Part shown: piece after piece, positions 22,482 to 24,653 of the stretch
How positions within the stretch are numbered: the stretch's first letter is position 1
How the letters are laid out: each line of letters opens with the position of its first letter
Sequence record: AY135739
From: Escherichia phage Wphi
Reading direction: 5' to 3' (one strand)
DNA length: 32,684 nucleotides
Notes under the pieces: generated by a model
Database searches by the model: none
Seen by the model: only the letters and a program-made list of their open reading frames with translations
What the model was told of the DNA's origin: nothing
Translations under genes and position numbers: made by a program

Positions 22482-22505
22482 ATGTGGACGCTATGTGGAC
22501 AGTGG
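22482..22505 (+). repeat. tandem ATGTGGAC repeats, putative integrase arm-type binding sites (one arm of attP)
   Basis: ATGTGGACGCTATGTGGACAGTGG read from sequence; a related tandem copy occurs at 22679-22698. Confidence 0.45.
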
Positions 22506-22593: not shown

Positions 22594-22678
22594 ATCAATC
22601 ACTTACATCGGTTTCCGTAAGAAAACAGTAACTTAAGAAAACCTATAAGGGACTGGAAGGGCTACAAAGTTCTGAGAG

Positions 22679-22698
22679 TGTGGACACTATGTGGACAC
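22679..22698 (+). repeat. tandem TGTGGACA repeats, putative integrase arm-type binding sites (other arm of attP)
   Basis: TGTGGACACTATGTGGACAC immediately downstream of the int stop codon; same motif as 22482-22505. Confidence 0.45.
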
Positions 22699-22711
22699 TC
22701 AGAAGGGAAAT

Positions 22712-23692
22712 TTATAACGTCACTCCGCCTTTTAGAGGATTCAGCGCGACGGCATTTTGCAGGTAGTCAGGCGCAAGGTGCGCATAGGCCATCGTCTGCT
22801 GAATGCTCGCATGTCCCAGAATCTGTTGCAGTGCGATTATATTGCCCCCATTCATCATGAAATGGCTTGCGAATGTATGCCGCAGGATGTGGGTTGCCTG
22901 ATTGGGTGGTATATCTGGCTTCACTCTGCGTAAAATCCCGCAAAACTTCTCATAATCAACTTTGAATAATTTAGCGCTGGCCTCCTCTTTAACTTTTTTC
23001 TCCAGTTCCTCAGAAATCGGCACGGTTCGCTTTTTACCGTTTTTGGTTTTCAGGAAGGTAACCCTGCAATTTGTAATCTGTGCTGGTTTTAGCGTGGCAA
23101 CTTCCGTCCATCTTCCTCCAGTGCTCAGACATAAAAGTGCGACAAGTAAGTCATCACCAGCCAAAACATTTAACAGTTTTTCGATTTCTGCTTTTTCCAG
23201 GAACGTCATTTCAGGGTTGGCCTCCGCCAGTGGCGGCAGTCCGTGAATTGGGTGTTGCCCGGAAAATTCATCCAATTGAATTAATTTTGTGAACATGCCG
23301 GATAATCGGTACATGTCACGGTTTATCGTTGCGGCACTGATACCATCACGTAGTCGCATGGAACGATAATCCATCAAAGCTCTTTTGCTCATCCGGCTCA
23401 CTGGTATATCACCTATGCCGCTGATGGTTTTGAGCAGATGATTAAACTCTTTTGTTCCATGCTCGTGGTTTTGCCCGTGATATTTCCACCAGATGTCCAG
23501 CAACTCACTCAAAGTTCGGCGATCTGCTCGCTGACCTGCCCATTCTTTCTGGCTGGCGTAGGCGATTGTGTATCGCTCAAATGCTACAGCCTCAGCTTTT
23601 CTTTCAAATTTCCTGCGGATGCGTTTTCCGTCGCGACCGCGAGGTCTAATGTCCACTTCATAGCGTCCATCATCGAGCTTCTTAATTGACAT
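22712..23692 (-). CDS. int: tyrosine integrase (P2-type)
   Basis: Start placed at ATG 23690-23692 (MSIKKLDDGRYEVDIRP...) with GAGGG RBS, 326 aa; the ORF-track start at 23722 (336 aa) is the alternative; C-terminal ...HILRHTFASHFMMNGGNIIALQQILGHASIQQTMAYAHL... is the tyrosine recombinase catalytic region. Confidence 0.85.
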   Translation of the reverse strand: MSIKKLDDGRYEVDIRPRGRDGKRIRRKFERKAEAVAFERYTIAYASQKEWAGQRADRRTLSELLDIWWKYHGQNHEHGTKEFNHLLKTISGIGDIPVSRMSKRALMDYRSMRLRDGISAATINRDMYRLSGMFTKLIQLDEFSGQHPIHGLPPLAEANPEMTFLEKAEIEKLLNVLAGDDLLVALLCLSTGGRWTEVATLKPAQITNCRVTFLKTKNGKKRTVPISEELEKKVKEEASAKLFKVDYEKFCGILRRVKPDIPPNQATHILRHTFASHFMMNGGNIIALQQILGHASIQQTMAYAHLAPDYLQNAVALNPLKGGVTL

Positions 23693-23761
23693 AAGAAAGC
23701 CCTCTGACGCTGTGTTCACCATCTTGGTAACAAATGGTGAAAATGTAATGTTTATAGAGTG

Positions 23762-24055
23762 TTAACCAGTCTGTTTTTCGGAGTGGTCTGATTCTGTTGG
23801 TTTTTGCCCAATGTGTGCGAGAGCCGGCGCGATCTGACCAGCTTGTGGTGACGTATCACCAGTCATTAACCAGAGCGTATATTTTTTAAATAAAGGCGTA
23901 TTTGTGACTCGCATAACGATGCTGAGACCAGGGTCTTTATGCCCACTTTCGTAATTTTTGACTGTTCCTAGAGCTATCCCGCTAATTTCGCTGAATTTCG
24001 CCTGTGTTAAGCCTTCTGCTTTCCTAATCGCTTTCAGTTTTTCGAATGTCTGCAT
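23762..24055 (-). CDS. C: immunity repressor C
   Basis: 97-aa ORF transcribed leftward just upstream of int; N-terminal helix-turn-helix-like segment; position and size as P2 C. Confidence 0.75.
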   Translation of the reverse strand: MQTFEKLKAIRKAEGLTQAKFSEISGIALGTVKNYESGHKDPGLSIVMRVTNTPLFKKYTLWLMTGDTSPQAGQIAPALAHIGQKPTESDHSEKQTG

Positions 24056-24207
24056 TTGACAGTAACCTATTGGTGACTTATATTCCCGTCAAAAGGTTGT
24101 GTATTGGTGACCTTTTGAGTGTGTTAGCCAGTCCCTAGAAAGGACAGGGGCGACCTAGAAGGGACTGGATCTAATAAGGGTAACACGAAAGCAAAAAGGG
24201 CTAATCA
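24056..24207. promoter_or_regulatory. C/cox developmental switch region (divergent Pc/Pe promoters and operators)
   Basis: 152-bp gap between divergent C and cox containing a 10-bp direct repeat TATTGGTGAC (24068-24077 and 24103-24112) and an 8-bp inverted repeat CCAGTCCC...GGGACTGG flanking two CTAGAA copies (about 24122-24162). Confidence 0.45.
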
Positions 24208-24480
24208 ATGGAAGTCAATGACTATGTGATTCAGTACCCGATTGATGCGGTACATACGGTTAAGTTTGCAGAGTTACTTGGTAAGCCAGAAACGGCTGTA
24301 GTCAAGATGGTAAAAGAGAATAAATTGCCAGTTATTGAGCTTCGTGATCCAAGTAAGCCGAACGCTCGTGTCGGTGAGAAGTGGGTTTTCATTCCAGAGT
24401 TTAATCGCGCTGTACGAGAGGCGTTTTATAACCGACCAGTTGAACAGCGTGATGCATGGCTTTTGTGGATGGGGTTGTGA
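24208..24480 (+). CDS. cox: Cox excisionase/repressor of Pc
   Basis: 90-aa ORF, first rightward early gene opposite C, as P2 cox. Confidence 0.7.
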   Translation: MEVNDYVIQYPIDAVHTVKFAELLGKPETAVVKMVKENKLPVIELRDPSKPNARVGEKWVFIPEFNRAVREAFYNRPVEQRDAWLLWMGL

Positions 24481-24482
24481 TT

Positions 24483-24653
24483 ATGAGTGAACCGCGTTGT
24501 ATTGCTCAGTTACTGCGTAACGAAAGCCCCAGGGCGATTGACTTCACCATCACCCACGGTAAGGGGCGTAAGGGAATCATTATCCGCACCAAAAAACAGA
24601 GTCCGGTAAAAAAGGCTCTGACCTTTCTGAAAAGCCGGAGGGTCTGGAAATGA
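24483..24653 (+). CDS. hypothetical early protein (P2 orf78 position)
   Basis: ATG at 24483 right after the cox stop (MSEPRCIAQLL...), 56 aa, basic; stop overlaps the B start (ATGA). Confidence 0.45.
   Translation: MSEPRCIAQLLRNESPRAIDFTITHGKGRKGIIIRTKKQSPVKKALTFLKSRRVWK

Follow-up and report, generated by a model that had tools for sequence, protein, structure and literature searches.

The C–cox spacer of phage WΦ holds a known direct-repeat operator, a putative Cox target and two covarying inverted repeats

Judged by its sequence, the window analysed here (the whole stretch of DNA, 32,684 nucleotides in length) is phage WΦ (Peduovirus Wphi), and the region of interest within it is the WΦ lysis/lysogeny switch, which has been studied before. 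The direct repeat of TATTGGTGAC in this region is the WΦ C operator, already known and proven by experiment, and the finding of an initial annotation made from the letters of the DNA is a correct rediscovery of the known switch. We are highly confident in the overall explanation of the locus as a P2-type switch of WΦ, with two convergent promoters and two repressors. The WΦ operator was mapped, mutated and kinetically measured between 1999 and 2007, and a report on the WΦ Cox target followed in 2009; material that is possibly new is limited to a copy of a putative Cox box in attP and a pair of covarying hairpins. The case indicates that a sequence-only reading can recover a direct-repeat operator correctly.

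A megablast comparison of positions 23700–24500 returned record AJ245959.1 (‘Bacteriophage WPhi ogr (partial), int, c and cox genes’) at 100% identity. Over its 2220 bp this record has 4 mismatches to the window, all in ogr and int, and 0 from C through cox. The closest full-length relatives in the phage collection that we searched are 96–98% identical. The window begins with GGCGAGGCGGGGAAAGCAC, which we take to be a P2-type cohesive (cos) end, and would therefore be a complete linear P2-like phage genome. Positions 24056–24207 (152 bp) correspond exactly to the intergenic spacer between C and cox, two divergent genes, with the integrase gene to their left:

22712–23722, minus strand: int, tyrosine integrase, left of C (open reading frame, AJ245959.1 and Pfam)
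23762–24055, minus strand: C immunity repressor gene, 97 amino acids, with a helix-turn-helix (HTH) (open reading frame; ‘c’ in AJ245959.1)
24208–24480, plus strand: cox gene, 90 amino acids, repressor of Pc and excision directionality factor (open reading frame, Pfam and P2 homology)

The 97-residue C protein matches the Pfam family HTH_3 (E = 2e-8), and its residues 4–97 are homologous to the P2 C structures 2XCJ and 2L49 (E = 4.5e-25). The 90-residue Cox protein matches Phage_Cox (PF10743, E = 9.4e-24) and P2 Cox (4LHF, E = 2.5e-20). The locus thus has the features by which a P2-type C/Cox switch is recognized: a small HTH repressor, Cox as the first gene of the early operon, convergent promoters and a direct-repeat operator. 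It also has the sequence features of the WΦ immunity class, with C and the spacer identical to WΦ and 10-bp TATTGGTGAC half-sites that are 34 bp apart, centre to centre. WΦ represents immunity class III (PMC3448106).

Two promoters are annotated in this stretch:

24056–24084, plus strand (GenBank feature 24054–24090): early promoter Pe, with −35 TTGACA at 24056–24061, a 17-bp spacer and −10 TATATT at 24079–24084
24172–24208, minus strand: lysogenic promoter Pc (GenBank feature, AJ245959.1)

In a promoter scan, Pe matched the consensus at 11 of 12 positions. Pc probably has an extended −10 element, which we read as TGT-TACCCT at 24185–24177; the reading is based on a TGnTA(A/C)CCT motif that is kept in relatives. 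The region had been annotated initially as a divergent promoter region, but divergence is a property of the genes alone: because the promoter features map to 24054–24090 on the plus strand and to 24208–24172 on the minus strand, Pe and Pc are convergent and face each other (AJ245959.1; PMC1904263). The WΦ Pe and Pc transcripts overlap by 82 nt, and the operator half-site O2 described below lies 60 nt from the Pc start (PMC1904263). These two distances place Pe +1 at approximately 24090/24091 and Pc +1 at approximately 24171/24172.

The C operator consists of two half-sites:

24068–24077, plus strand: O1, TATTGGTGAC, inside the Pe spacer and 1 bp from the −10
24102–24111, plus strand: O2, TATTGGTGAC, at about +12 to +21 of Pe

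The two copies are 34 bp apart from start to start, with a gap of 24 bp; the repeat that had been annotated at this place is therefore real, although its spacing had been given as 35 bp. They share one orientation, are non-palindromic and flank the Pe −10, and neither strand of the 32.7-kb window contains a further exact copy. The annotation had proposed the repeat as a candidate C operator, and the proposal agrees with the published sequence and geometry: the O1 half-site is given as TATTGGTGAC, and mutation of O1 abolishes repression in vivo (PMC1904263), and the operator is described as two 10-bp direct repeats, 34 bp apart from centre to centre, on either side of the Pe −10 (PMC1904268). 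The operator withstands single point mutations, but a double mutant is no longer under C control (PMC1904268), and repression in vivo requires both half-sites (PMC1904263; PMC1904268). C is a dimer, the binding of which bends the operator by approximately 60 degrees (PMC1904263). The general statement that P2-type repressors use direct repeats rather than palindromes fits the co-oriented half-sites and the published operator of WΦ. A palindromic operator of the lambda or 186 type was considered and rejected, given that the half-sites have the same orientation and that the local inverted repeats are not C sites.

We regard it as virtually impossible that this repeat is a chance occurrence rather than the C operator. 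Beyond the general possibility, all that can be put forward for chance is that a perfect direct repeat of at least 10 bp appeared in 8 of 2,000 dinucleotide-preserving shuffles of the 152-bp spacer. The idea is already refuted by the literature, in which exactly these half-sites were tested by mutagenesis, EMSA and SPR (PMC1904263; PMC1904268), and it is also at odds with the uniqueness of the repeat in the genome and with its conservation along with the repressor.

That conservation can be followed through 91 loci that encode relatives of Cox, 36 of which form the WΦ C class, their C proteins having at least 99% identity to that of WΦ. Both half-sites are intact in 32 of the 36, and the other 3 operator variants (CATTGGTGAC, TGTTGGTGAC and AATTGGTGAC) differ in a single half-site, and there only at position 1 or 2. 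All 36 loci share an unchanged 8-bp core, TTGGTGAC, in both half-sites; the core is also present in vB_YpM_22. In the nearest other C class, the protein of which is 73% identical, direct repeats of the TTAGTGAC type occupy the same place, and more distant C classes have unrelated repeats. Because the sequence of the repeat tracks the class of the C protein, being invariant in its core where C is the same and different where C differs, the suggestion in the annotation that the pattern defines immunity specificity holds, and its proposal to look for conservation within the immunity group has a clear outcome in the invariant core. The sequence of the half-sites sets the immunity class.

In the published switch, C dimers on O1 and O2, which are about three helical turns apart, bracket the −10 and the start site and block the near-consensus Pe; transcription from Pe interferes with Pc, and Cox represses Pc and is required for excision. 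The order of events has been shown in part: an active Pe transcribes cox, its polymerases meet the weak Pc head-on at a distance of 82 bp, and Cox then shuts Pc off.

The candidate target for that last step lies to the right of the operator. Two CTAGAA motifs had been annotated in the region, and we found them at 24135 and 24155; the whole window has 3 on the plus strand and 1 on the minus strand. Each of the two forms the core of one copy of a 15-nt imperfect direct repeat that had been overlooked, CCTAGAAAGGACAGG / CCTAGAAGGGACTGG, whose copies have a spacing of 20:

24134–24148 (12-nt core 24134–24145), plus strand: putative Cox box 1, CCTAGAAAGGACAGG, a presumed copy of the WΦ Cox repeat
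24154–24168 (12-nt core 24154–24165), plus strand: putative Cox box 2, CCTAGAAGGGACTGG, at approximately +5 to +19 of Pc

The 12-nt cores CCTAGAAAGGAC (24134) and CCTAGAAGGGAC (24154) differ by 1 mismatch, are 20 bp apart and have the consensus CCTAGAA(A/G)GGAC. According to one article, the P2 cox-boxes are not bound by WΦ Cox, and its recognition element, for which Ahlgren-Berg et al. 2009 are cited, is a 12-nt direct repeat in the Pe–Pc region (PMC5009727). A full-text search of a literature collection for the sequence of the WΦ Cox 12-mer returned no relevant paper. An exhaustive listing of 12-mer direct repeats with at most 1 mismatch in the spacer yielded two, the C operator and CCTAGAA(A/G)GGAC. 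As the only such repeat besides the operator, the pair at 24134/24154 is, by elimination, the probable WΦ Cox target. The remaining elements of the region had been annotated as candidate Cox sites; for the CTAGAA motifs this was essentially right, as they mark the lone 12-nt candidate, but the published Cox element is a direct repeat and not a palindrome. Cox would repress Pc by binding the two copies, at approximately +5 to +39 of Pc, a position at which bound Cox would overlap the footprint of the polymerase; with a spacing of 20 bp, both boxes would lie on one side of the helix. Read by eye rather than from a computed count, YTARAA motifs at an interval of 20 bp are retained in relatives. 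AAGGG motifs are concentrated over the Pc −10 and −35 as well as in attP, and AAGGGCTA is confined to Pc and attP; this clustering is only suggestive of a relation to Cox.

A near-perfect copy of the putative Cox box is also found in attP, together with a short repeat:

22642–22656, plus strand: attP copy of the Cox box, CCTATAAGGGACTGG, matching box 2 at 14 of 15 positions
22618–22626 and 22634–22642, plus strand: 9-bp direct repeat TAAGAAAAC in attP, which shares AGAAA with the boxes of the switch

At up to 3 mismatches, CCTATAAGGGACTGG is the sole other match in the genome to the 15-mer of box 2, and it has the attP core on one side and the int-proximal Int arm sites (TGTGGACACTATGTGGACA, 22679–22697) on the other. 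A motif common to just Pc and attP is what would be expected of a Cox recognition element, because Cox must act at both places, and the attP copy would serve the second job of Cox, as an excision factor. This box, which may be new, would tie both functions of Cox to one motif. The TAAGAAAAC repeat adjoins the copy. A 9-bp attP repeat that shares 5 bp with the Pe–Pc repeat was reportedly noted by Ahlgren-Berg et al. in 2009, and TAAGAAAAC is a candidate match for it. The attP sites of R18C and P37 contain no copy of their own switch boxes within 4 mismatches; they have only a looser positional homologue, CTGTAAGGGTTTGG plus AGCGGTTT.

Two inverted repeats flank or overlap these protein sites:

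24089–24118, no strand: hairpin 1, TCAAAAGGT (24089–24097) / ACCTTTTGA (24110–24118), a perfect 9-bp inverted repeat
24128–24168, no strand: hairpin 2, CCAGTCCCT (24128–24136) / AGGGACTGG (24160–24168), a 9-bp inverted repeat with a 23-nt loop

Hairpin 2 corresponds to an annotated 8-bp perfect inverted repeat, which is real and perfect but is 9 bp long, having been recorded one base short in each arm. The 3′ part of Cox box 2 forms its right arm, and the Pc start precedes the whole element by 4 nt. The repeat of hairpin 1 was overlooked in that annotation and is unreported; it encloses most of O2, its loop holding positions 1–8 of the half-site and its 3′ arm the remaining two. From the published start sites, hairpin 1 begins at Pe +1, so that the Pe RNA folds with 0 unpaired nucleotides at its 5′ end, and the Pc leader folds as 4 unpaired nucleotides (AGAU) followed by the 9-bp stem of hairpin 2. 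Folding and comparative sequence analysis make predicted RNA hairpins, one at the 5′ end of each of the Pe and Pc transcripts, the most likely reading of the two repeats.

Hairpin 1 is predicted to fold at −9.9 kcal/mol on the plus strand (z = −3.3) and at −7.8 kcal/mol on the minus strand (z = −3.2). We evaluated its covariation in 26 heteroimmune relatives with a structure that we specified ourselves; RNAalifold on a MAFFT alignment recovered 4 pairs only. In this sample 85% of the cells are paired versus 73% in shuffles, 8 of 11 pairs have double changes versus 5.0 in shuffles (a value reached in 3 of 500) and the covariation score is 0.346 versus 0.135 in shuffles (reached in 0 of 500) and at most 0.138 when the partner is slid, in controls that for both hairpins overstate significance because the aligned sequences are related. 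Conservation by compensatory change thus appears clear for hairpin 1, and moderate for hairpin 2. A typical Pe start would, in some relatives, fall downstream of the lower stem of hairpin 1, and for this reason the complete hairpin may exist only in the leftward (C) mRNA.

That the repeat of hairpin 2 works as RNA, forming a stem-loop near the 5′ end of the C mRNA and also in the cox leader, and with hairpin 1 controlling transcript stability or the sense/antisense pairing of the 82-nt overlap, has in our estimate slightly less than an even chance. Hairpin 2 is predicted to fold at −17.4 kcal/mol on the plus strand (z = −2.6) and at −20.0 kcal/mol on the minus strand (z = −4.4), the latter fold together with the 4-nt tail making up the Pc leader. 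Its outer 6 bp are kept in heteroimmune relatives while both arms change, giving arm pairs such as CCAGTC/GACTGG, CCAGCC/GGCTGG, CCAACC/GGTTGG and CCAGCG/CGCTGG, with double changes at position 4 (G-C to A-T), position 5 (T-A to C-G) and position 6 (C-G to G-C or T-A). These counts come from an alignment of the arms only, comprising 24 distinct arm types and anchored on the invariant CCA and TGG, which weakens them as evidence for RNA; this alignment was adopted because MAFFT on the full hairpin gapped the left arm and was unusable for pair counts. The covariation score is 0.224 versus 0.143 in shuffles (reached in 0 of 500) and at most 0.110 with the partner slid; against this, the number of pairs with double changes, 6, does not exceed that in shuffles (114 of 500), and the relatedness of the sequences inflates all such comparisons. 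Covariation support for hairpin 2 therefore appears moderate. Judged by eye, the distance from hairpin 2 to the Pc −10 seems not to vary among relatives, and hairpin 1 follows the same logic more strongly. On the other side, counts of G-U versus A-C cells show no strand preference (14 versus 14 for hairpin 1 and 6 versus 9 for hairpin 2), so that they point to neither strand as the one that folds. A permissive Rfam scan of 23700–24600 gave no matching family, with chance-level matches only (E of at least 1.1, far below gathering scores), and the arrangement in P2 differs.

The repeat of hairpin 2 could instead be a DNA element for Cox, the left arm being an inverted partial Cox box, with three Cox sites in all and arms that would co-vary through differences in Cox specificity between phages. 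The right arm, as the 3′ part of both Cox box 2 and the attP copy, fits such an element, as does the precedent of P2, in which cox-boxes take both orientations in one target (PMC3936717). In several cases a different Cox sequence group goes with a different type of stem (CCAGT, CCAGC or CCAAC), and the clustering of AAGGG motifs over Pc and in attP points the same way. We nevertheless consider a Cox DNA element unlikely: the attP copy has no inverted partner, the published WΦ target is a direct repeat (PMC5009727), and similar Cox proteins are found with different stems, as in loci L052 (Cox 94% identical to that of WΦ; CCAGTC) and L072 (91%; CCAACC). It is distinctly improbable, in our view, that the repeat has no function and is a chance by-product of the G+C-rich Cox boxes, kept by common descent. 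An inverted repeat of at least 9 bp occurs in 61 of 2,000 shuffles of the spacer, which makes the repeat by itself just modestly unusual, and stem positions 7–9 are poorly kept in relatives, both of which would suit an element of no function; such an element would hardly account for loops that diverge almost completely while the outer stem survives changes on both arms.

Returning to the two repeats as RNA hairpins, our leading guess for their role is stabilization of mRNA: they might guard the transcripts from decay that depends on the 5′ end, or might govern pairing within the 82-nt overlap. Stabilizing stem-loops at the 5′ terminus are known on E. coli mRNAs, of which ompA is the type. As in that type, each WΦ hairpin lies 0–4 nt from a mapped transcript start; unlike it, the WΦ hairpins are in a region that is transcribed from both strands, and they overlap O2 and Cox box 2. 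A broader proposal, that WΦ-related switches of the P2 family carry an undescribed conserved RNA layer of two hairpins in the doubly transcribed region, is one that we put forward tentatively and hold to be rather doubtful; through such a layer, the two opposed transcripts would be adjusted in their stability, translation or antisense pairing. If functional, the hairpins give a textbook-style genetic switch a further, post-transcriptional level of control. In published reporter work, the output of Pe rose approximately 100-fold when vector DNA replaced the WΦ sequences flanking Pe and the operator, for which no explanation was given (PMC1904263); the loss of Pc and the loss of both hairpins might each be the cause.

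Compared with the WΦ switch as published (Liu & Haggard-Ljungquist 1999; AJ245959.1), the locus shows no difference: the half-sites, their spacing, Pe, Pc and the 82-nt overlap are the same. The P2 switch (AF063097) shares with it the order int–C–cox, homologous C and Cox proteins and convergent promoters, and in P2, as in WΦ, C acts on two direct repeats that flank the Pe −10, and Cox represses Pc and acts at attP. The half-sites of P2 are 8 bp long (O1 is given as GTTTAGAT) and 22 bp apart, whereas those of WΦ are 10 bp long and 34 bp apart, and the transcripts overlap by approximately 35 nt in P2 compared with 82 nt in WΦ (PMC1904263). The shorter overlap of P2 contains one inverted repeat, different from the WΦ pair, and the layout with two hairpins is therefore not general to the family. 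P2 Cox uses at least six 9-bp cox-boxes, TTAAA(G/C)NC(A/C), overlapping the −10 and −35 of Pc (PMC5009727, PMC3936717); the putative WΦ target, by contrast, comprises two 12-mers located downstream of where Pc transcription starts. WΦ Cox also differs from P2 Cox in that it does not activate P4 (PMC5009727, PMC3936717).

P2 Hy dis resembles WΦ in having a small C repressor that acts on two direct repeats at Pe (PMC1904268). Phage 186 has face-to-face lytic and lysogenic promoters, as WΦ does, and its Apl protein, a repressor and excisionase, is analogous to Cox (PMC3448106; PMC1904263). Its CI repressor, however, is a two-domain protein of 196 amino acids that binds inverted repeats and distal sites, and CII serves for establishment; WΦ has none of these. 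Among 5,426 complete E. coli genomes, 263 carry the WΦ switch at 95% identity or more.

Across relatives, the −10 region of the lysogenic promoter Pc reads TGnTA(A/C)(C/T)CT, with TGT-TACCCT as the WΦ version (window 24177–24185, − strand). From the sequence we infer an extended −10 element; the 37-nt promoter feature in GenBank implies a different hexamer. The + strand of the window contains 29 AAGGG motifs, and in one place only, over Pc, do three of them cluster within 50 bp (24159, 24176 and 24196); another three occur in the int-proximal arm of attP, the phage attachment site left of int (the two regions are 24159–24202 and 22647–22707). The sequence AAGGGCTA is found at two sites only, 22657 and 24196. 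On the basis of the distribution of AAGGG and AAGGGCTA, the −10 and −35 elements of Pc may also be contacted by Cox. Further elements lie in attP, among them a near-perfect copy of Cox box 2 (24154–24168, + strand), one copy of the putative Cox-binding direct repeat.

Features of attP (window coordinates)
22642–22656: copy of Cox box 2, 14/15 match, CCTATAAGGGACTGG
22618 and 22634: 9-bp direct repeat TAAGAAAAC
22483–22501 and 22679–22697: Int arm sites, TGTGGAC(G/A)CTATGTGGACA

The copy of Cox box 2 immediately follows the 9-bp direct repeat; the two together occupy 22618–22656.

At the early promoter Pe (+ strand), the transcript start is the beginning of an inverted repeat that extends around most of O2 (24102–24111), one of the two 10-bp half-sites of the C repressor operator.

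Inverted repeat around O2
24089–24118: perfect 9-bp inverted repeat, TCAAAAGGT/ACCTTTTGA

The loop holds O2 positions 1–8 and the 3′ arm holds the last two O2 bases. In 26 heteroimmune relatives, this repeat is kept as a hairpin, with compensatory changes present. Upstream of cox in several heteroimmune relatives (L003 (P37), L006, L007, L014 and L072, from the 91 collected loci that encode Cox relatives), the Pe −10 is flanked by inverted, not direct, repeats, which is unexpected given the direct-repeat binding described for the family.

Inverted repeats around the Pe −10 in heteroimmune relatives
L003 (P37) and L006: TTAATGAC ... GTCATTAA
L007: TGACGAC ... GTCGTCA

Within the C gene of WΦ itself, TATTTGTGAC (23899–23908) matches the C half-site at all but one position and lies 169 bp to the left of O1; isolated near-matches of this kind have been mentioned and judged unlikely to matter (PMC1904268).

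Matches restricted to cox, at around 85% nucleotide identity, were found in 443 E. coli genomes (hits H50–H68) and many phages (H24–H30). They begin at the cox start codon or no more than about 15 nt from it, and the genomes that carry them have another C and another operator. The switch edge at the cox start looks like a recombination boundary, with the Cox/Pc and C/Pe halves assorting separately. For some Cox relatives that are 59–81% identical (L008, L009, L015, L016, L064–L066, L076, L082, L085 and L086), the upstream region is quite different, lacks the P2-type C/Pe layout and contains GC-rich hairpins, such as CCGGGCAGGG…CCCGG, which suggests that Cox-like genes are also placed in another regulatory context.

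Phage fiAA91-ss (L005, KF322032.1; 2105–3604) has a C and an operator of the WΦ type; its homology to WΦ cox stops at around window position 24303, and an IS21 element (istA/istB) is annotated directly downstream of that end. In one subgroup (L006, L057, L059 and L061), the cox leader is longer by an extra segment of around 60–80 nt (…GAACTGACCTGCACGCCGAGATTTCGACGGGTCATTCATCGG…), which separates the Pc region from the start of cox.
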